Positions 37,441 to 53,337 of a stretch of 64,000 nt of DNA are shown piece by piece; the stretch's first letter is position 1; each line of letters opens with the position of its first letter. The stretch lies in the NCBI GenBank assembly GCA_000091205.1, contig AP006500.2; one strand, 5' to 3'. Under the pieces are notes generated by a model. It saw nothing but the letters and a program-made list of their open reading frames with translations. It searched no databases and was not told where the DNA came from. The stretch comes from Cyanidioschyzon merolae. Its lineage: Eukaryota. A program made the translations under genes and the position numbers.

Positions 37441-40400
37441 TTACAGTGCATCTAGACGGAGCACCGTAACGGACACTTGCATGCCGTCCGTGGCGTCCTC
37501 CGAGGTGACTTGTGGACTCGTGCGCGCCGCCGTCTCTGGGACCTCGGCAGCTGCTTCCGTCAGCAGGCGCTCTATGGCCTCATCGGAGAACGTCTTGGAT
37601 GCGTTCTCGTCGTCAATGCTCAGTCGCACACCGTGGCGAACGAGTCCGCGCATGGTGGCCCGCGACAGCGTCTCACGATGGGTCGCGATCCACTGGAGAA
37701 TCCGCGGTAGCGGTGCCAGATGGAGCTGGATGAACTGACAGAGCTCACTTGCGTACGGGAGCGGATGGAAACCCAGCACTTCTTCCAGATTACCGATAAG
37801 GGTCTTGGCATCTACCAGCGCCTGGCTCACGCATTGAATGTCTACACTGGTGACGGGAATCTGTGCGATGCCGTCCTGAACGGCAACAAGTACGCCAAAA
37901 ACGCAGGCGCGCCACAATGGCTCCTCGGCATGCGCCGGTAGTCCTCGGGATTCGTGCAGCATGCGCAAACGAGCCGTTATCTGGGCTACATATGGACTAG
38001 CCCGCGAAACGGAGACCGCATCCTCATTCCCGCCTGCAGAGGCTTCTCCAAGCGTTTCATGCACAGCGCCTTCTGCCGACGGTGAGACCGGGCTCTGTCC
38101 CTGGGTAATAGACTGCCACCAGGGTGCCTTTTTCTGTTTCAACTGTTGAACGACGTTGCGCGTGATCTCTGCGGTATCCACGAGCGCCGGTGCCAGGGAA
38201 CGGTACAATGCCAGTTGCAGCGCATCGGCGAGGCCACGTAGCTGGTTCGCTCTACCAAGAGCCTCGGCGACAAACGCGTTTCGCCATCGGCTTTCCGGTC
38301 GGTATGCAACCTGTGTTTGTTCCTGAAAGGTGGCCGCTGTCTCCAGAGTCAGCGCAGCGACCTGTCCTATGGTCCAGGCCGACTCCACAGCGCAACAAAA
38401 CTTGCTCAAATTGAGTTCCGACCGCGGTCGTTGGAGCGCTGTTGACGACGCTGCACTGGATCCCGGTTCATGTAGAAAGTGTGCCAAAAGTGCTCGCTGG
38501 TACGCACTCAGTGCTGGCCGCAAGCTTTCATACTTTTCCAGTTGAACGAGACTACCGCCTAGAATACCCGTTGCCATGAAGCACGGCGCGTAGACGACAC
38601 CGAGCAGGTACATCGCAAAAAGTGCGATTTGCTGAATCGCTTCCGCAAATAGACCAGCTGGGGCAACATTTGCATATTCAGATGGTGCATACAGCATCGA
38701 TGCGAGCGTGCCAATGCATTCGATCCCAAATACCGATGCGCCCGTAAATGTATAGTCGTCGGGTATAGAATAACCCTCATCACGATGCAAGCGCTCCCAG
38801 ATAATAGACAGGAGATCTTCAACGCGCAAAGAGGCTAGCTCGTGGGTAAGCACCTTCACCACGAGGCACGAATCCGGATCCGCATCTGGTACTGCATACC
38901 AGGCGCGAATCGTCTCCCAGTAAGAACGCCAAGTCTCCGGTACAAAGCGATTCTGATCGAGCTGCATCTGGTTGCGCGTGTCAGTATTTCCCAGCGACTG
39001 AACGCTGATTGCTTGCCAGTCATTGGGAGTCGCAAATATCTCCATGAAGCGCGACTCAATATCACGTTTGAACAGATCAATATAACTCTTGAGGAGAGGC
39101 TTCACGATATTCTCGTGGATCGTAGCGAGCGGCAACGTGCGCTGCTTCCTCTGTCGAGTACCACGCAGGAGGCGTTCTGCATTCAGCTCCAAACTCGATG
39201 TGCGCACTACCGAGCCGTTCGGGCTTGCAGTAACCATTGAATGCTTCCTTGGTGCAGTCGCATCGAAGCTATAGATACCAGCGGCGCGTCCATCAGCGTC
39301 TTCCGGGAAGTGATCATCGGCTGCAATGGATATCCACTGTGTCTCCAGAGCGTGCAGCACCAGTTGGGAGCGCCAAAGCTCCGCCAGCGTCACTACAGGA
39401 TAGGTATCGTGTTCAGCGACAAGCTGATTCGCCATGAAATCGCAGTCCGCGTCGAGTCGAGCTTGCAGTGCCTCCCAAACGATGCTTCGAAATCGTTTGC
39501 TGATCCTGGGGTGTTCGAAAAGCTGTCGCACTGGGTAACAGATTGCTGAGAGAAATCCAGCCCAGCAGTCTAGAAACTCCCACGGATTCCGTGGTCTCGA
39601 GGCCAGTTCCCCACCAGATGGAGCGGTGTTGCTTGGCACATGTTGCGATTTTGGCGTCCGTGGTGCCAACGCGTTGGCATGGGCGCCTGCAGCCTGCCAT
39701 ACGTTCGTAAAGCTCGCAAGCAACGGCGACGCCACCGCAGCCTCTCTTTTGGATAACTCGTTTAAAGTCGCACCGGAGGCTTGCCTCCATTGTGCGCATT
39801 CGAGCGCCCTTGCACGAATCTCGGCAAGCACATGCTCCAAGGCATATGCGAAACGCTCGGCTAGGACCAACTCAGCGCCGAGATTCTCATAGGCGTTCCA
39901 GACGGCCTGGAATACTTCCGCATCGAACTTGCAACAGAGACCCTGCACCTGCTCGAACATGCACTGAAGCGATCGAGCGGCAAGGTCCATGAACACGTCT
40001 GAGAAATCTCTAAATATTCTTCCCTTTCGAACGACAGATCCAAGTTCTCTACGGAGAAGGCTCGAACGATACAGCAGATCGAATGACTTGCAAAGACGAT
40101 TCGCTTCATCATACTGATGCAGACGCAGCGCATCTCGCACTTCGTCTAAGAGCTGCTGCATCCGTCGAATAGTTTCAAGACTCTGTACAACCGAACGCAG
40201 AAATGAACGCTTGCTTACTTTGCGTTCGAATAGCTCTTCTGATACGTGCAGTTCTTTTCTTGAGCGACGAATAAGGTTCGAGTTTTCAGAAAGCGTCCCG
40301 AGTGCTTTCGACAAAGCGTCCGACACCAAATCCAGTGCGAGCGTTCGCTGCGCAACAGCTTCCGGGCCGGCCCGCAGTCGGACGTAGCGATTACTTCCCA

Positions 40401-41076
40401 AAGCCTGCGCTTGGTAGAGATGAGCCGTGTAACAGTCCAGCTGCTCGGTTGCTCGACCTAACTCATCAATGGCTTCGGTAAGGGCGCTCAAATTGATTAT
40501 CATTTTGCCATCAGCTCGTCGTCGAGATGCACGCATTAGAGCCTCCTGCAGCAAACTCGACGGTGTAACGCTTTCAATGACTTTGAGCTCGGACGCTTTT
40601 TCGTTGGACTCCTTGGCGCCGGCAGCGGCAACGGCACGTTCCACCGTGCTCAAGGAGACGTGCAACGACTTGAGCTGACGAAAAGACAGCTTTTTCGTGC
40701 CTCTCTCCGAACTTGCTGCTTGTCGGTTGCCGTCCTCGGTCGTGTCACTGTGGCGAGGCCGTTCGGGAACGACGGCAGCCGCTGTCGCTCGGGACTGGTT
40801 TTGCCGTGCATTGTAAGCGCGGCAAGTGCTCTCGTACTCAGAATTACAGTGCGAAAACGAGCCAGTGCCTACCGTGGAGCTGCCTGAACCGCCAACGGAT
40901 CCTAACAAACGTAACTCTTTCGCCAGAGGTTCGAACGGGCGTCCCGCAATGTGAAGCTGCTCTGCTGAGAACGAGCGACCGACCCGGAGCCCCCGGGAGT
41001 GGCGTGTTTTTTCGGAGTTCCACGAACCAACGTGCTCACCGGTTTCACGGGGCCGTTCGTGAAGAGATTCCATCAA
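37441..41076 (-). CDS. Large (1211 aa) hypothetical protein, mostly alpha-helical; weak resemblance to vesicle-tethering complex subunits (Vps54/COG-like)
   Basis: This is a 3.6 kb uninterrupted ORF with non-repetitive composition and predicted amphipathic helical repeats. I recognise no diagnostic catalytic motif. Confidence 0.4.
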   Translation of the reverse strand: MMESLHERPRETGEHVGSWNSEKTRHSRGLRVGRSFSAEQLHIAGRPFEPLAKELRLLGSVGGSGSSTVGTGSFSHCNSEYESTCRAYNARQNQSRATAAAVVPERPRHSDTTEDGNRQAASSERGTKKLSFRQLKSLHVSLSTVERAVAAAGAKESNEKASELKVIESVTPSSLLQEALMRASRRRADGKMIINLSALTEAIDELGRATEQLDCYTAHLYQAQALGSNRYVRLRAGPEAVAQRTLALDLVSDALSKALGTLSENSNLIRRSRKELHVSEELFERKVSKRSFLRSVVQSLETIRRMQQLLDEVRDALRLHQYDEANRLCKSFDLLYRSSLLRRELGSVVRKGRIFRDFSDVFMDLAARSLQCMFEQVQGLCCKFDAEVFQAVWNAYENLGAELVLAERFAYALEHVLAEIRARALECAQWRQASGATLNELSKREAAVASPLLASFTNVWQAAGAHANALAPRTPKSQHVPSNTAPSGGELASRPRNPWEFLDCWAGFLSAICYPVRQLFEHPRISKRFRSIVWEALQARLDADCDFMANQLVAEHDTYPVVTLAELWRSQLVLHALETQWISIAADDHFPEDADGRAAGIYSFDATAPRKHSMVTASPNGSVVRTSSLELNAERLLRGTRQRKQRTLPLATIHENIVKPLLKSYIDLFKRDIESRFMEIFATPNDWQAISVQSLGNTDTRNQMQLDQNRFVPETWRSYWETIRAWYAVPDADPDSCLVVKVLTHELASLRVEDLLSIIWERLHRDEGYSIPDDYTFTGASVFGIECIGTLASMLYAPSEYANVAPAGLFAEAIQQIALFAMYLLGVVYAPCFMATGILGGSLVQLEKYESLRPALSAYQRALLAHFLHEPGSSAASSTALQRPRSELNLSKFCCAVESAWTIGQVAALTLETAATFQEQTQVAYRPESRWRNAFVAEALGRANQLRGLADALQLALYRSLAPALVDTAEITRNVVQQLKQKKAPWWQSITQGQSPVSPSAEGAVHETLGEASAGGNEDAVSVSRASPYVAQITARLRMLHESRGLPAHAEEPLWRACVFGVLVAVQDGIAQIPVTSVDIQCVSQALVDAKTLIGNLEEVLGFHPLPYASELCQFIQLHLAPLPRILQWIATHRETLSRATMRGLVRHGVRLSIDDENASKTFSDEAIERLLTEAAAEVPETAARTSPQVTSEDATDGMQVSVTVLRLDAL

Positions 41077-41336
41077 AAGGTAGCATAATCAAGTCGGCAC
41101 AGCACGCACCAACAACGCCTTTCGAAAGAGAAACGTTGTCACCGGGCGTGTATAGTAGTGGCGAGTGACCTGCCCTAGACAAGAAGTCTCCAACTGAGGT
41201 GCAGACGCCTCTCCGTCTTTTTGGACCGGCCACCCACCACTTCTTCAAACTTTTTCTCATATAGTTCTACTTTGAGAGGTTTTCCAATAAAATTCTCTCG
41301 TATCAGCTCTGGAGGTCTATTCTCCAGCACCGCCTA

Positions 41337-41609
41337 TTTCCTTACATTGATAGCGGCGTTAAAGTCTCGGTTCACGAATTCCATACGTTTCTTGCCATCA
41401 CTGGTTGTACTTATTAGTGCAAGTAGTCCACGAACTTTCGCTCTCATTTCCATTTGCTCTTCCGTCAGCGGTCCGTACCATTTCATATCCTCAGGGCTCC
41501 TCTGGCACTGTTCCATCTCGACCCCCTGAAGTGTGCATCCCGGTTCATGGTGTGGATAAGACGTTCGAAACTCATCAACAGGTATCGTGACAAAACGCCG
41601 TGCGCACTC
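41337..41609 (-). pseudogene. TnpB/Fanzor-like gene, C-terminal segment (TS motif, Cys/His cluster, RuvC-III)
   Basis: My manual translation of the same frame after the TAG gives ECARRFVTIPVDEFRTSYPHHEPGCTLQGVEMEQCQRSPEDMKWYGPLTEEQMEMRAKVRGLLALISTTSDGKKRMEFVNRDFNAAINVRK*. The TS...C...C...RDxNAAxNI order is the TnpB/Cas12 C-terminal architecture. Confidence 0.5.
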
Positions 41610-41612
41610 CTA

Positions 41613-42542
41613 GTACGTTCTTGTCTTTGGAGCTGGAGTAGTCCCTTTTTGGATCTTCCAGCGCCCTGCTCTGTATGCTACTACGAGCCTCCGACTTTGA
41701 TCCTCTTTGAGGGCGCTCAGTTGATTGAAAAAGTTCGCGAACGCCCGCCGCTTACCGCAATATAAATTCATTCGCAAAAGAGCCCAACTGGGATTTGTAT
41801 ACTCCTCCCACAGTGCATCCCAATGAGGAACACGTACATTCATGAACTTCCGAAAAGCTTGTAAGCCCGCTCCTCGGCTCGTCACCTCGCTCAAAGCTTC
41901 CAGGTGATCCTTCATTCCTGAATTCCACGTAACAATTTTCTTCCTCACATTCATTATACCGGATTCTCGATAGTATCTCGCTCTCGAGAACCTCAATAGA
42001 CGCAAGTCTTTCTGACGTAAGTTGCCGTCAATGCCGTCTTCCCCACATTTGAGTGCGGCGATGGTAACGATATTCGTGTTCCCGGGGTCCGCGCCAACGA
42101 CCAAGTCGTTATCTTGCACTTTCTGTGTCGCAGGACCCGCCTGCTTCTCATCTTCATTCTTCGTCGCGGGCGGAGCTGGACGATCTGTCTTCAAGCGCCG
42201 ATTGTGCACACTCAAGGCTACTCCATCGGTTTCGATCATCCCAGCGAATACCTTTTGTTTGCTGACTTTGAGACGTTTGAAATCGAAGATATTCTTCCAG
42301 TACTTCTCCCGGTTTTCGCCGGAGAATCCCTCCTTGCTGACACCGAACTCGGGACTGATCTCGCTAATGATGCCGTAAAGGATTCTGGACTCGATAGTAA
42401 CAAAATGTGACTTGATGTTGCACATTGGAACCACGTTGAAGCGCTTCCCCATTAGGAACGCCTTCCGTCTCTCCCACTCTTCATTTTTTCCCTCAATCAG
42501 CTTCATCTCCGCCTTGCGCTCGAGTTCTCGACTCAGCGACAC
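41613..42542 (-). pseudogene. TnpB/Fanzor-like gene, central segment containing the RuvC-I-like motif
   Basis: The motif [19 protein letters not shown] is present, and the segment ends ...RRLVVAYRAGRWKIQKGTTPAPKTRTY. It terminates at an in-frame TAG (41610-41612) and continues in the same frame into the next segment. Confidence 0.5.
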
Positions 42543-43152
42543 GAAATACCGCAGGATAAAGGGATGCCATCCTTTTCATAATTGATACCCTTTTTTGTGG
42601 ATGCATCAGCCCCAGAACCGCACGGTGCTCTTGAATAGCCGCACAGATCACAGAAGCTTTATTCTCTCCCTCGCATGATGTCTTCTTGTGGACGAATTCC
42701 ATTTCCTGTTCATTCTTACTATCGTTCGTGATGCTATCGATGATGGCCCATATCCTTTTGCGAGAGAGGCCCGGGTACAGCGCAAAGATGAAGCCTATCA
42801 TGAAGCGTTTGAGGTTCATAGTCATATGGTTCTTCCGGTACGTGAGGTACTTCGTCGCTCCGTAGGTGTAAATATCCCGGTTACCCATGTATCGAGTACC
42901 CTCGACGCGGAATTCCACGAAATTTTCGTAGAGGGCGTGCACTGGCTCATTATCCCTCCGCGCCTGCCGTGTACCAACCATCAGGTGGCGAACGAAGGTC
43001 TTGTTGAAAATTCCTCCGGAACCTCGACTGTTTTGATTTCCGTCGCGTTGCGATACATCTCCTTCACCAAATGCATTAGCCCTTACGAAGCGTGTATAAT
43101 ACTCATGGATTACGAATCGACACGGTTTCCGATGGCTTCTCGCATCTTCTCC
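42493..43152 (-). pseudogene. TnpB/Fanzor-like gene, N-terminal segment (frame 1)
   Basis: The open frame runs from 43152 to 42493. It overlaps the next segment by 50 bp in a different frame (a frameshift or short intron). A Lys/Arg-rich putative NLS region lies further upstream in ORFs 43110..43358 and 43165..43419. Confidence 0.45.
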
Positions 43153-44423
43153 TTATACGGATCTTTAATATGTCCAAGAAGACAGGCTTTCACGACCATC
43201 TCGTCGTACTGTCGTCTTTCTTGCAGTCTTCGACGTAAGGCCTCCCCCTTTTGCCTCTTTTCCGCTTCCTTTTCCTCTCGACTTGGCACTGTTTCTTGTT
43301 TTTTTTTTCTGGCAGCCGGCGACAATTGGTCCCCATGATCGTCGACTTGATTTTTCAATTCTTTCCTTTTTAATTTTTGAATATGAACGCTCTTTGAAAG
43401 CCTCTACTATAACCAGCAAAAAATCACTTAAAAACTTTTGTTTGAGGTTTGAAACACAATCGAATTGAAAAACTATACTTTGCTACGACTTTAACGCAAA
43501 GACCACTTGTAAGTTACAGCAACGCGCTGATGATCTGGATCTCATTCCCCGTCAACGGCGACGTACACATCGTGAAAGCCTGATATGGAGGTGCGTGTAT
43601 CGACCGTGCTTAATAGAAAAGAACAAAAACAAACAATTGACTAGCAATTCGATGATATTTTCGTTCAACTCTCATGGTATATGTTAAAAGGAGGAAAAAC
43701 TTTCCATGTTGTCGAAAGCTTACGATCTAGGCGGAAGGTCCCGCGACCCTGACGCCTTTGCCGGGCTCGCGCTTGGTGCCCCCAACAATGACTGGTGCTT
43801 TGGTTAGATATGAGCAGCTCGTACACAACACACTTTATTCTGGGACTAGGAGCGGGTAGACTGCCTCTGGGCGTCGCACTGGTCGGGTTGCTCTCCTTGC
43901 ACATCGCTTCGCGCTGCTCCAAAAGGTACGTCTTTCTGCGCAGTTTGCATGCTCCGAGAATGACAATGTATCCCGACTCCGCGTCGAATGGACTACGCCT
44001 CGAGCCGACGCCCTCAGCTGGTATAGCAAAGCAGTTCTATCTCCATGCTGGATGCGCACCAGCCGTAAAAGCGCTTTGGCGGGTGCATCAAGGCAGGTAC
44101 TCGGCGTCAGAATAGAACGTACAAAAGGACCGGTACATCCGAAAGGAAGTGCAAGTGATGAAACTTGGAGGTAGGGTGCAGCATGATAATCGATTTTCCA
44201 ATTATCAATATCCGTCCCGCAATCTGGGATCATCCGTGGTCAACGTAAGCGGTTTGTCATTGGAAACAAAATCAACGCAAAAGACGCCATTGGGTTTGTG
44301 CACGCGTTTCGGGACGCCTCAGCTTTCTTGTTGTTTGTGAACAGTTTCTCTAGTATCCGGTTCTGCTTCTTTGCTTTTTTGCTGTCATCCCGCTATCTCA
44401 GAAAGTTCTGAGTCGAGCTGTGT

Positions 44424-45167
44424 TTGTGTGTGCGTGCGAGCTCCTGCATGGAAGCACCGACAGCTTCCAGCGATGCTGCTCTATCGAGCCCGGTGGAGTC
44501 GCGGGACGCGCGGCTGCCCGCGGACTCCCTCGAGGCCACAGCTGCGCTGCTGGAGGCACTCTCACGAGTAAAGGAACTGGAAGGAGAACTGGCCAACGAA
44601 CGCCGTCGGCGTATTGCTTTGGAAAACGAAGTGCAACAGCAGAAAGCGCTGAACGTACGCATCCAGCAGCAGCTGGAAGCCGAAGAAGAGGCCCTAACGA
44701 ACCGCCTGAACAAACGCCTCAGCGAGCTTCGTTTAGAGAAAGAACAGCTCGCTCGTGATATTGAACGAGAGGAGGAGTACTTAACTAATACGCTCCAGCA
44801 GCGCTTGGAGCAACTGAAAAAGGAGAAAATCGACATGGAGAACGCTTTAGAGGCAGAGCAGGAGGCTATTGTCAACCGCCTCCAGCGCGAAGTACAGAAA
44901 CTTCAAAAGGAAAAAGCAGCGTTGGAAAAGCAGCTGAGTCAGTATGCACGCTCGAGCTTGGATCTACCGCCCGCAACACCGAGTGACTCCGAAAGCGAGC
45001 GCGACATTGTTCGCAGGCGGCGTTCATTCAGCCGCGACTCCAGTCCACGTGTATCCGCTGCCGCTTTCCGGGCACGTCTGGAGCAGACTCGTCTAGCCGG
45101 CCATAGCAGTTCAAGTGCGCACACCACACCACCTGGTACGCCGCCTCGTCCGAAAGATCAAGCATGA
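44424..45167 (+). CDS. CCDC6-like coiled-coil protein (DUF2046 family)
   Basis: The characteristic periodic blocks are EEEALTNRLNKRLSELRLEKEQL, EEEYLTNTLQQRLEQLKKEKIDMENALEAEQEAIVNRLQREVQKLQKEK and a Ser-rich C-terminal tail. Together they match the CCDC6 family pattern (EEEFLTN.L.+KL..L..EK..LE..LE.EQE.(Q)VN+L). Confidence 0.55.
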   Translation: MCVRASSCMEAPTASSDAALSSPVESRDARLPADSLEATAALLEALSRVKELEGELANERRRRIALENEVQQQKALNVRIQQQLEAEEEALTNRLNKRLSELRLEKEQLARDIEREEEYLTNTLQQRLEQLKKEKIDMENALEAEQEAIVNRLQREVQKLQKEKAALEKQLSQYARSSLDLPPATPSDSESERDIVRRRRSFSRDSSPRVSAAAFRARLEQTRLAGHSSSSAHTTPPGTPPRPKDQA

Positions 45168-49899: not shown

Positions 49900-52800
49900 A
49901 TGACGGGAGAGAGTGTGAGTGTGCAATACCAGCCCGACGGAGTTGCCATCATCGTTTTTTCTGCTCCTCCAGTGAATGCGCTTTCGGTGAACCTACGGCG
50001 TTTGCTGGCTTTGAACGTCGCGAACGTTGTTGCTGATCGGCGGGCGAAGGCGATCGTGCTGTATGGTGGCGAGAGCACCTTCTCGGCCGGGGCTGACGTC
50101 GGCGAGTTCCCTGAAAAGCTTGGAAGTGCGGAGAATATTATCTCTTTGGATACGGAGCCGTTCAAGACGCTGCTAGAGACTAGTCCGAAGCCGACTGTGG
50201 CCTGTATCACAGGCACAGCGCTTGGCGGAGGCCTGGAGCTCGCCCTCGCGTGCCACTTTCGCGTTGCTCTATCGGATGCAAAGCTTGGACTTCCGGAGCT
50301 CAGACTGGGCCTTATCCCCGGTCTTGGTGGTACCCAGCGTCTTCCCAGACTGATCGGCGTTGAGCCAGCACTCGATATGATTATGCACTCGCGAATCATT
50401 GACGGCGAGGAAGCGCATCGCTGCGGGCTCGTCGACCGTCTCGTTCCAGCGAGTCGTCGAGAGACGTTACTGCGAGAGGCCTGTGCTGTAGCCCTGGAAG
50501 TCGCCTCAGATCCTCAAAAGATGCCGCCACCGCTATTAACCCGAACGGACAAGCTTGGGAATGCCGACGTTGAGAAAATTCGCAGCAAGTATCTGCCGAG
50601 AGCTGTAGAAATGCGGCAGAAAACTGGTCAGATCCAGTTTGAAAGCTGTGTCCGAGCTGTCCTCGAAGGCATTGAGCGTGGTGGTGGCGATGCTGGCTGG
50701 GCACTAGAAGCGGAGCTTTTTCGACAGTGCGCGGCGTCGGAGGCATCACGAGCTCTCATTCATGTCTTTCTTGCCTCGCGAAGAACAGTGACGAATTTTA
50801 AGGCAGAGCCGCACCTTCATGAGCCTCGGACAGTTGCGGTGATCGGCGGTGGCCTCATGGGAAGCGGGATTGCAGCATGTATCCTACAAAATGGTGGACG
50901 CGTCGTCTTGAAAGAAGTCAATGAAAATGCCCTTGCTGCAGCTATACAGCGTATTGAGGCTATCTTGAGCCGCGCCAAGGTCGACACCGCGGATGCCAGG
51001 CGGCGACTTCAAGGCACGATCGAATTCGACAAAAAGCTTTTCAGTGATGTAGACCTCGTCGTCGAGGCAGCCGTCGAAAATGTACAAGCGAAGCAAGGCA
51101 TCTTTCGATCGCTGGCGGAATGCACGGGACCACACTGCATTCTGGCGACCAACACCAGCACGATCAACTTGGACTTGATCGGTGAAGCGATTCCGCAAGT
51201 CCATAAGGAAGGGCGTCTGATTGGTGCACACTTCTTCAGTCCTGCACATGTTATGCCACTCCTGGAAATTGTACGTGCGAACCGCACCAGAAACCGCGCA
51301 GTGCAGATGGTGCTTGCGTTTGCGAAACATCTGCGGAAAACACCAATCATTGTGGGCAACTGCGCCGGTTTTGCCGTGAACCGAATGTACTTCCCCCAGA
51401 CCCAAATGGCGTTCTTTCTCACTGAGTACCTCGGTATTCATCCATACGACATCGATCGTGCATGTCAAGAGGTGCTTGGTCTGCCAATGGGACCCTTCGG
51501 CCTTGCGGATCTCGTCGGTCTCGACATCTGTGATTCTGTGAACCAGGTTTTTAGCATGTCGTATCCCGAGCGAGTTTGTAGCCTCAGCATCGCGGGCAAG
51601 TTGATTGAGATGGGCAGAAAAGGTCAGAAGAGCGGTGCTGGCTTTTACCGCTACGGTGCGGATCATCGCAAACCGATCGAAGATAGGGAGATGTTGGATC
51701 CGCTCCTTGCCTCTATGACGCCGCCACCGCTGCGCGAGCCATTAACGCCGTTAGACATCGTGCAGATGATTTTCTTCCCGGTCGTCAACGAGGCCATGCG
51801 GGTTCTCGAGGAGCGTATTGCCGACAAAGCAGCTGACCTCGACGTTGCATCGGTGCTTGGCTACGGTTTTCCGGCCTATCGAGGTGGCCTGCTCTACTGG
51901 GCTCAGCATCTTCCCGGCGGGCCGCGTCTCATCCTGGAGCGCCTGCGCGAATGGGATACACGATTCGGTACGCAGTGCCCGCTATTCGCTCCGTCGTTTG
52001 CCCTCGAATGTGCGCTAAGGTCAACTGAACCTGTGCTGGAGCGGCCTCCTCGTCCTCGTTTAGCGACAGGCTCGGACGACGATATCGTGTTCGTGGCCGC
52101 TGTTCGCACCGCGATCGGAAAAGCGGGGCGCGGCCTCCTGAAGGATACGCTCCCCGAAGACATGCTTGCGCCGCTCATCGGGGCGCTCTTGGATCGATCA
52201 GCTGTGAAACCCGCCGAGGTCGGAGACGTTATCGTCGGAACCGCCCTACCTCGTGGTGATGCGGCTGCTGTGAGTTTGCGCGTCGCTGCGCTGTGTGCTG
52301 GCCTTCCTGATACCGTTCCAGTGCGGCTGGTAAATAGGCTGTGTGCGTCGGGGTTGCAGGCTATCGCTGACGCTGCCGCTGCCATTCAGCGAGGCGATTA
52401 TGGTATCGCTATAGCCGGGGGTGTGGAATCCATGTCGATGAATGCTATCCAGTTAAGTCTGGAGCGCAGAAGTCACCGCCTAGCGAGTTGCGCAGCAGCA
52501 GAGGATGCCTATCTCAGTATGGGAGACACCTCGGAAAACGTTGCAGCGCGCTTTGCGATCAGTCGAGCAGCGCAGGATCGCTTCGCAGCTTCGAGTCATG
52601 CTCGAGCGTCACGTGCATCGCTTTCGGGACGCTTCGAGCGAGAAATCCTTCCCATTTCGACACAAGTGTATCCCACCAGGAAAGCGGCGAAGCAAGCAGA
52701 CGGGAACCTCTCCACGGCGGAACGCGCGCCCGCAGTCCCACAACCGGTTGTGGCGCAACGCGATGAGGGTATTCGCTTGGGCGTCACCACTGGAGCGTTG

Positions 52801-53337
52801 GCCAAGCTCCCGCCAGTCTTCCGAAAGCAGGGTACCACTACAGCTGGGAATAGCTCCCAAGTCAGCGATGGAGCGGCACTGGTACTCTTAATGAAGCGCA
52901 GCGAGGCACGGCGGCGGGGTCTCCGGCCGCTGGGAACGTTCCGGGCCTTTGCGGTTGCAGGCGTGCCGCCAGCAATCATGGGCATAGGACCCGCGGCCGC
53001 TATTCCGAAGCTACTTTCGCAGGCTGGAGTCGAAGCTAATTTGATTGATCTATACGAAATCAATGAAGCATTTGCCTCTCAGGCGGAATACTGTGTCCAG
53101 AAACTTGGACTCAACCGAGACGTTCTCAATGTGAATGGCGGTGCAATTGCACTCGGTCATCCGTTGGGCATGTCCGGCGCTCGTCTCTGTGTGACGCTCT
53201 TGCACGAGCTTGCTATCCGGGAGGGGCGCTATGGCGTGGTCAGTATGTGTGTTGGTACCGGGATGGGAGCCGCTGCTCTACTGGAACGATGTGAAGATGA
53301 CGGTTTTGATGAGCGACGGTTGCGAGCAGCACTTTAA
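49900..53337 (+). CDS. Fatty-acid beta-oxidation multifunctional enzyme with enoyl-CoA hydratase, 3-hydroxyacyl-CoA dehydrogenase and 3-ketoacyl-CoA thiolase fused in one 1145-aa polypeptide
   Basis: The crotonase fold reads CITGTALGGGLELALACHFRVA...PELRLGLIPGLGGTQRL. The HAD Rossmann motif is VAVIGGGLMGSGIAACIL, with NTS and HFFSPAHVMPLLEIV. The thiolase carries N-terminal DIVFVAAVRTAIGKAG, the active-site Cys NRLCASGLQAI, NEAFASQ, NVNGGAIALGHPLGMSGAR and CVGTGMGAA. There is no stop or frameshift between the FadB-like and FadA-like parts. Confidence 0.8.
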   Translation: MTGESVSVQYQPDGVAIIVFSAPPVNALSVNLRRLLALNVANVVADRRAKAIVLYGGESTFSAGADVGEFPEKLGSAENIISLDTEPFKTLLETSPKPTVACITGTALGGGLELALACHFRVALSDAKLGLPELRLGLIPGLGGTQRLPRLIGVEPALDMIMHSRIIDGEEAHRCGLVDRLVPASRRETLLREACAVALEVASDPQKMPPPLLTRTDKLGNADVEKIRSKYLPRAVEMRQKTGQIQFESCVRAVLEGIERGGGDAGWALEAELFRQCAASEASRALIHVFLASRRTVTNFKAEPHLHEPRTVAVIGGGLMGSGIAACILQNGGRVVLKEVNENALAAAIQRIEAILSRAKVDTADARRRLQGTIEFDKKLFSDVDLVVEAAVENVQAKQGIFRSLAECTGPHCILATNTSTINLDLIGEAIPQVHKEGRLIGAHFFSPAHVMPLLEIVRANRTRNRAVQMVLAFAKHLRKTPIIVGNCAGFAVNRMYFPQTQMAFFLTEYLGIHPYDIDRACQEVLGLPMGPFGLADLVGLDICDSVNQVFSMSYPERVCSLSIAGKLIEMGRKGQKSGAGFYRYGADHRKPIEDREMLDPLLASMTPPPLREPLTPLDIVQMIFFPVVNEAMRVLEERIADKAADLDVASVLGYGFPAYRGGLLYWAQHLPGGPRLILERLREWDTRFGTQCPLFAPSFALECALRSTEPVLERPPRPRLATGSDDDIVFVAAVRTAIGKAGRGLLKDTLPEDMLAPLIGALLDRSAVKPAEVGDVIVGTALPRGDAAAVSLRVAALCAGLPDTVPVRLVNRLCASGLQAIADAAAAIQRGDYGIAIAGGVESMSMNAIQLSLERRSHRLASCAAAEDAYLSMGDTSENVAARFAISRAAQDRFAASSHARASRASLSGRFEREILPISTQVYPTRKAAKQADGNLSTAERAPAVPQPVVAQRDEGIRLGVTTGALAKLPPVFRKQGTTTAGNSSQVSDGAALVLLMKRSEARRRGLRPLGTFRAFAVAGVPPAIMGIGPAAAIPKLLSQAGVEANLIDLYEINEAFASQAEYCVQKLGLNRDVLNVNGGAIALGHPLGMSGARLCVTLLHELAIREGRYGVVSMCVGTGMGAAALLERCEDDGFDERRLRAAL

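Follow-up and report, generated by a model that had tools for sequence, protein, structure and literature searches.

One Fanzor1 family, CMe-1A, is listed for the red alga Cyanidioschyzon merolae, in a classification that files CMe-1 under Fanzor1 (Bao & Jurka 2013, Mobile DNA 4:12; PMC3627910). It is described there as an element of ~3 kb, without terminal inverted repeats (TIRs) and with TSDs undetermined, present in ~150 genomic copies that are each ~80% identical to the consensus; some of these still encode an intact Fanzor1, and the 5′ 635 bp of the element are common to a second repeat, TE-N2_CMe. From the same work comes the Fanzor motif D-X(125,275)-[TS]-[TS]-X-X-[C4 zinc finger]-X(5,50)-RD. 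A further peculiarity of Fanzors is a rearranged RuvC-II, in which the place of the canonical Glu is taken by a non-acidic residue, with an alternative Glu further downstream (Jiang et al. 2023; PMC10530073). The bacterial TnpB proteins (IS200/IS605, IS607; e.g. ISDra2 TnpB with its omega-RNA) resemble the CMe-1A protein in being RuvC nucleases carried by a transposon, and in both cases the 3′ end of the ORF or element is where a structured non-coding RNA may be expected; CMe-1A ends in a two-hairpin module. The differences are that the host of CMe-1A is a eukaryote, that the element has no TnpA-like transposase, and that the presumed role of its RNA is read from the sequence.

The window analysed here is a stretch of 64,000 nt of C. 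merolae (contig AP006500.2 of assembly GCA_000091205.1). Exact protein look-up showed that proteins of the window are identical to the strain 10D entries BAM82559, 82567, 82568, 82569, 82570 and 82571, and the ORFs behind BAM82559, BAM82567 and BAM82571 are long and intronless, their chromosome measuring 1,253,087 bp. The last of these (49900-53337, plus strand) is a single 1145-aa ORF fusing enoyl-CoA hydratase, 3-hydroxyacyl-CoA dehydrogenase and thiolase domains, and GenBank annotates it as a fusion protein. The Fanzor1 remnant considered in this study sits between CMR375C (BAM82568) and BAM82569; since these two neighbours have consecutive accessions, no CDS is annotated at the remnant. 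A search of a collection of 15 billion proteins gave no match to its ORF fragments. The GC content is 48-51% over 40-44 kb, compared with 55% for the whole window.

A first-pass annotation had described at this place a TnpB-like gene in which a single in-frame TAG separates a segment containing RuvC-I from a segment with a zinc finger and RuvC-III, and had left three explanations side by side: a decaying pseudogene, a short spliceosomal intron, or stop-codon readthrough. The plus-strand bases at 41610-41612 are CTA, i.e. TAG on the minus strand, where the translation around the stop reads ...TTPAPKTRTY*ECARRFVTIPVDEFRTS... and the longer stretch ...RLVVAYRAGRWKIQKGTTPAPKTRTY*ECARRFVTIPVDEFRTSYPHHEPGC...NRDFNAAINVRK*. 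This frame stays open for 92 codons past the TAG, and the two ORFs said to share it, 41610..42542 and 41334..41516, indeed do so (41610-41334 = 276 = 3x92). The frame change reported near 42493-42542 is also real, the ORFs 42493..42981 and 41610..42542 overlapping in different frames. As to the singleness of the TAG, it is the sole stop between 42542 and 41337 in this frame, but six further disabling lesions are present in the same gene copy, among which the lost start codon, two TAA stops and the upstream 1-nt deletion had been overlooked. Moreover, the TAG at which the downstream ORF ends is itself premature, the ancestral stop lying further on, at 41175-41177.

The arrangement of ORFs around the TAG is not a chance juxtaposition, since the stitched translation is colinear across it with homologous proteins. 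The search with the stitched ORF found 55 of them (best E = 1e-294), all from JGI/ENA metagenomes and none from NCBI; four (P0045, P0048, P0052 and P0055) are full-length intact homologues at 26-41% identity. A scan of the metagenomes yielded 389 stretches encoding a relative, of which 80 loci were used for blastn comparison of the element. A profile made of the window reconstruction and 8 homologues (A1) was searched against the PDB, where it matched the Fanzor1 of Spizellomyces punctatus (SpuFz1, 8GKH) at E = 3.2e-6 over profile positions 275-648, with the Asp of DPxxxxI, the Glu of DE[FY]xTS and the Asp of NRD aligned, and that of Guillardia theta (GtFz1, 9CER) at E = 0.023. These two matches bear out the TnpB-like/Fanzor label given at first sight. 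The relationship is very distant: the family consensus protein, used as a single sequence, had no match in the PDB, Pfam found no family on the window ORFs, and the close homologues reached no TnpB model in Pfam but only a weak DUF8286 or a sub-threshold PF07282, while the distant homologue P0055 matched PF07282 (Cas12f1-like TNB) at E = 2.9e-5. What aligns to SpuFz1 is its WED/RuvC half, and the Lys/Arg-rich N-terminus of the CMe-1A protein recalls the NLS-bearing N-termini of Fanzors (PMC10530073).

Judged by its sequence, the gene at 41.1-44.3 kb is one copy of the known transposable element CMe-1A. The likeness covers the host, the length (~3.2 kb), the single Fanzor1 ORF, the absence of TIRs, the multicopy state, the extra 5′ module of ~0.7 kb and the identity to the consensus (~80-86%); for the window copy the latter is 85.5% over 2455 nt, relative to a consensus built here from 40 metagenome copies and not to the Repbase consensus. 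The difference is that the window copy is disabled by seven lesions, whereas some of the published copies are intact (PMC3627910).

The lesions were defined by comparison with this consensus, which is the majority of 40 aligned full-length paralogues from metagenomes. It consists of one open, intronless frame of 784 codons (MKKQVDD...SWRRFV*). An apparent stop at codon 148 of a first version arose artificially, because two subfamilies (TTT and GAA) had been merged in it. The features mapped in this way are listed in Table 1 together with the catalytic codons and the neighbouring genes.

Table 1. Features of the CMe-1A copy and of its surroundings, in window coordinates
Feature	Position	Strand	Basis or remark
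CMe-1A copy	41100..44277	minus	blastn homology starts and ends against 80 metagenome loci; boundaries approximate
5′ module, ~700 bp	43575..44277	minus	only in some copies; matches the description of the part shared with TE-N2_CMe (PMC3627910)
Fanzor1 ORF remnant, ancestral start to ancestral stop TAG (41175-41177)	41175..43358	minus	mapped on the 784-codon consensus
Lost start codon, TTG	43356..43358	minus	ATG in 32/40 paralogues
Premature TAA	43110..43112	minus	consensus TAC (Tyr), 34/40 copies
Premature TAA	43083..43085	minus	consensus TCA (Ser), 33/40 copies
1-nt deletion in T run, frameshift	43008..43012 (~43011)	minus	GAA-TTTTC vs consensus GAGTTTTTC
11-nt deletion	42572..42577 (~42575)	minus	GAA-----------AAGG vs consensus; is the frame change near 42493-42542
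RuvC-I catalytic Asp, GAC in GADPGNTN, retained	42087..42089	minus	aligns to Asp of VVVIDPNKRDI in SpuFz1 8GKH
Gly>Arg (AGA) in LVVAYG strand	41670..41672	minus	Gly in 35/40 paralogues and all distant homologues
TAG, AAG(Lys)>TAG nonsense, A>T	41610..41612	minus	paralogues AAG 30, AAA 8, AGG 2, TAG 0
Catalytic Glu, GAG in VDEFRTS, retained	41571..41573	minus	aligns to Glu of LLDEYKTS in SpuFz1
RuvC-III catalytic Asp, GAC in NRDFNAA, retained	41364..41366	minus	aligned to SpuFz1 NRD
Second premature TAG	41334..41336	minus	consensus TGT (Cys); paralogues TGT 34, TGC 3, TAT 1, TAG 2
Two-hairpin module, begins at ancestral stop codon	41113..41177	minus	covariance model R1, 40.5 bits; degenerate copy
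BAM82568 = CMR375C	37444-41073	minus	exact protein match; neighbour of remnant
BAM82569, CCDC6-like coiled-coil protein	44448-45164	plus	exact protein match; neighbour of remnant
BAM82570 = CMR378C			exact protein match; nearby gene

The first-pass annotation had suggested looking at whether other genomic copies share the TAG at 41610-41612. None of the 40 paralogues does and, as all of them have AAG, AAA or AGG at this codon, the TAG is a Lys-to-stop change private to the window copy among the paralogues; the distant homologues have K, R or A there. Before the second premature TAG arose, the ORF ran 53 codons further. None of the other 40 copies is free of damage by the same test, each having one or more stops or frameshifts. 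Another source of variation in the family is a 75-nt (25-aa) in-frame tandem repeat directly before the RuvC-I Asp, with one unit in the window (about 42089-42168), 4 in L001/P0001 (L001:7149-7449) and 2-4 in other copies; an in-frame difference of 162 nt between the window and the consensus results from the smaller number of units. This variable repeat sets the CMe-1A family apart from SpuFz1 and GtFz1. A Ka/Ks estimate among copies had been proposed too: for the window copy against the consensus, dN/dS is 0.42. Being below 1, this value probably means that much of the divergence predates insertion and was acquired by master copies under selection.

Information on what happened after insertion comes from three independent metagenome assemblies (L015, L016 and L017) that are syntenic with the window. 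They are 98.6-99.3% identical to it over 7 kb including both flanking genes, and thus show this very insertion in wild strains related to 10D; the insertion is present in all four strains compared. A further contig, P0004, was considered as a syntenic copy and rejected, its insertion site being different. The seven lesions are base-for-base identical in the three wild copies, so that the TAG is neither a sequencing error nor recent. Three frameshifting indels inside the remnant are polymorphic among strains: a 1-nt deletion at 42396 (T present or absent) in the three wild copies relative to the window, an A run at 42597 with a length of 6, 7 or 8, and an indel in an A run at 43308. No indel was found among the strains in 2.25 kb of the CDS of CMR375C, and none in the 0.74-kb CDS of the coiled-coil protein. 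The substitution divergence among strains is 0.96-1.55% for the remnant, 0.44-0.89% for CMR375C and 0.13-0.27% for the coiled-coil CDS. The ratio of nonsynonymous to synonymous changes among orthologous copies is 25:12, against 25:11 in the real gene CMR375C (Fisher p = 1), and since CMR375C gives the same ratio it brings no independent support for neutrality. The substitutions are spread over the codon positions as 9:13:17 (p = 0.29 vs uniform). Both the ratio and this spread are compatible with neutrality, without being discriminating.

Taken together, seven lesions shared with the orthologues, newer indels and the absence of an annotated CDS strongly support the decaying pseudogene among the three explanations initially offered. 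None of the marks of a functional gene was found: there is no ATG, there are four premature stops and two frameshifting deletions, and divergence is faster in the remnant than in the CDSs on either side. We are therefore confident, to a degree close to certainty, that the TAG arose by a point mutation, AAG(Lys)>TAG, which became fixed in a CMe-1A relic that is unannotated and no longer functional. With seven lesions in the copy, neither an intron nor readthrough is needed to explain the stop. One counterpoint is that the D, E and D catalytic codons are intact, so the decay of the window copy is not extreme. All the same, a full-length nuclease from this copy would be impossible, and a product ending at the TAG would be without the catalytic Glu and the RuvC-III Asp, though their codons survive. 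This need not mean that the CMe-1A family is dead throughout, since some copies are intact (PMC3627910).

The history that we propose is as follows. The ancestral element carried the gene, free of introns, for a Fanzor1 protein of about 784 aa, a TnpB-type RuvC nuclease that, by homology to SpuFz1 and to the Fanzors of Jiang et al., was presumably RNA-guided, and whose relocated RuvC-II Glu would be the one in DEFRTS. After insertion, the copy evolved without selection for coding capacity and accumulated damage: loss of the start codon, four nonsense codons, and deletions of 1 nt and 11 nt.

Other readings have to be weighed against this one. The relic could have been co-opted, either as a truncated protein or as DNA or RNA serving the host, for example as promoter or 5′UTR of CMR375C. 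CMR375C is co-oriented with the element, whose 3′ end (41099-41114) precedes the annotated ATG of this gene (41073) by only ~27-40 nt. The upstream region of the gene is thus made of transposon sequence, in which its promoter/5′UTR would then have to lie; furthermore, the insertion was kept in 4/4 strains. Retention in strains that are 1-2% diverged is, however, what is expected of a neutral relic, and constraint is nowhere apparent, the remnant outpacing the flanking CDSs in divergence and being polymorphic for indels. The 3′ hairpin module is degraded (40.5 bits), and the 310-aa ORF has neither support from an ATG context nor a match in protein databases. We consider co-option very unlikely.

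A second possibility is that short spliceosomal introns take out the TAG and also restore the frame near 42.5 kb, the spliced mRNA then encoding a working Fanzor. Fanzor genes of other eukaryotes do contain introns (PMC10530073), and the search for GT..AG boundaries around the TAG returned 67 frame-preserving pairs at distances of 20-400 nt that span it. Yet the window copy aligns colinearly across the TAG with the 40 paralogues and with the intact distant homologues, and no inserted sequence is left over that splicing could remove. The shortest candidate (72 nt) would delete the conserved stretch VAYGAGRW..TTPAPTTRTY, and a 117-nt candidate would delete the catalytic VDEFRTS. At 42493-42542, where a GT...AG intron had also been envisaged, the frame change is an 11-nt deletion with respect to the consensus and not an insertion, that is the opposite of an intron. 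The 784-codon consensus ORF is intronless, and the host has only 27 introns in total and a reduced spliceosome. Splicing would, in addition, have to mend two TAA, the 1-nt deletion, the second TAG and the missing ATG. For these reasons we give practically no credence to the intron.

The same holds for programmed readthrough or recoding of the TAG as a route to a full-length nuclease. The catalytic codons are intact on both sides of the TAG and the frame is open for 92 codons beyond it. Against this, TAG is the stop codon of 3 of the 10 neighbouring genes and no tRNA gene was found within the window. Programmed recoding would be expected family-wide, instead of which the TAG is private (0/40 paralogues). 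Even if it did occur, readthrough would leave no ATG, two TAA and two frameshifts upstream, and a premature TAG downstream; with four stops, two frameshifts and no start codon, we regard it as highly improbable. Finally, a sequencing or assembly error that would leave the real gene intact at this codon has a negligible probability, for it has nothing specific in its favour beyond the fact that single-base errors occur in any assembly, and the TAG and the six other lesions are identical in L015, L016 and L017.

The reading of the TAG as a point mutation in a dead CMe-1A copy makes it an ordinary nonsense mutation in a transposon family already known since 2013. The locus encodes no working RNA-guided nuclease, and shows no unusual decoding or splicing in an organism famed for its near-absence of introns. 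For the annotation, the gain is that the stretch from about 41.1 to 44.3 kb, flanked by CMR375C and BAM82569, can be labelled a CMe-1A/Fanzor1 pseudogene. The set of paralogues, with its intact 784-codon consensus and a two-hairpin module at the 3′ end, could be used for resurrecting a red-algal Fanzor1 and its guide RNA.

The way in which the TAG divides the protein had been correctly described as far as the nuclease is concerned, with the RuvC-I Asp upstream and the catalytic Glu and RuvC-III Asp downstream, whereas the zinc-finger label was loose. The family consensus has the D, [TS][TS] and RD parts of the Fanzor motif, D being codon 481, E codon 653 and RD (VNRDFNAA) codon 722, and TS follows the RuvC-I D by ~175 residues. 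The aligned catalytic Glu of CMe-1A is the one in DE[FY]xTS, as in SpuFz1, and the Gly of LVVAYG, 33 residues upstream of it, is presumed, from the description by Jiang et al., to mark the old RuvC-II position. A canonical CxxC...CxxC zinc finger was found neither in the window copy (41420-41565, minus strand) nor in the family consensus. The corresponding region of the latter reads TSYTHHELGC-x9-C...RGLLALVSTT and, unlike SpuFz1, has H, L, L and a gap at the positions of the four Cys that are the Zn ligands of that protein. The distant relative P0055 keeps CxxC...C..C. The missing canonical finger thus appears to be a trait of the whole red-algal clade and not a result of decay of the window copy. 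What had been called ZnF would be a degenerate remnant at best, although the remaining His and Cys residues might bind zinc.

From the stop codon onwards, the final ~65 nt of the element make up a two-hairpin module that reaches the terminus and is kept in 61 copies (e.g. L037:4474-4535). With a covariance model (R1) the best copies score 60-90 bits, compared with 40.5 in the window. Over the 61 copies, 88.5% of the cells are paired, against 37-61% when the partners are slid, and the covariation score is 0.195 vs 0.143 in shuffles, a value reached by 0/500 of them; both figures come from an alignment fitted to the model and from related copies. One hairpin pair is split between GC (23) and CG (20). 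For the terminal stem there are two variants of different length, CGUCGUUCGA-CUU-UCGAACGGCG and CGUUUUUC-UUUU-GAAAGGCG, whose G-U pairs fit the sense strand only. RNAalifold missed this terminal hairpin on a MAFFT alignment in which the two length variants were misaligned; it was recovered by single-sequence folds and the covariance model. Rfam gave no match on 40.8-44.5 kb. It is plausible, from sequence and predicted folding, that the module is a candidate for the 3′ end of the scaffold of an fRNA guide RNA; it lies where the end of a Fanzor scaffold would be looked for. The module is absent from the published description of CMe-1A (PMC3627910). A joint reading, in which CMe-1A is a Cyanidiophyceae Fanzor1 lineage without canonical C4 finger, its scaffold ends in the two-hairpin module and the 3′ end of the dead copy supplies the promoter/5′UTR of CMR375C, can be put forward tentatively, but as a whole it seems rather unlikely to us.

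As to the limits of the element, the 3′ end of the window copy can be placed at 41099 to 41114, the 5′ end less sharply at 44148 to 44277, and no terminal inverted repeats join the two. In window coordinates, many copies start at 43561-43574, and the long ones at 44148-44277. Fragments of the 5′ module are found alone or inverted at other loci (L005:1783-1967, L044:1334-1535 and L077:1038-1244), which agrees with the existence of TE-N2_CMe as a repeat of its own, as described in 2013. On the other side, past ...GGCGTT, several copies share short 3′-flank sequences (GGTG[TC]G, TTYCAGGGG and GTCGCTGCC), which could mark termini specific to subfamilies, a favoured target or insertion into other repeats; in the window, the 3′ flank at 41099-41106 is GGTGCGTG.
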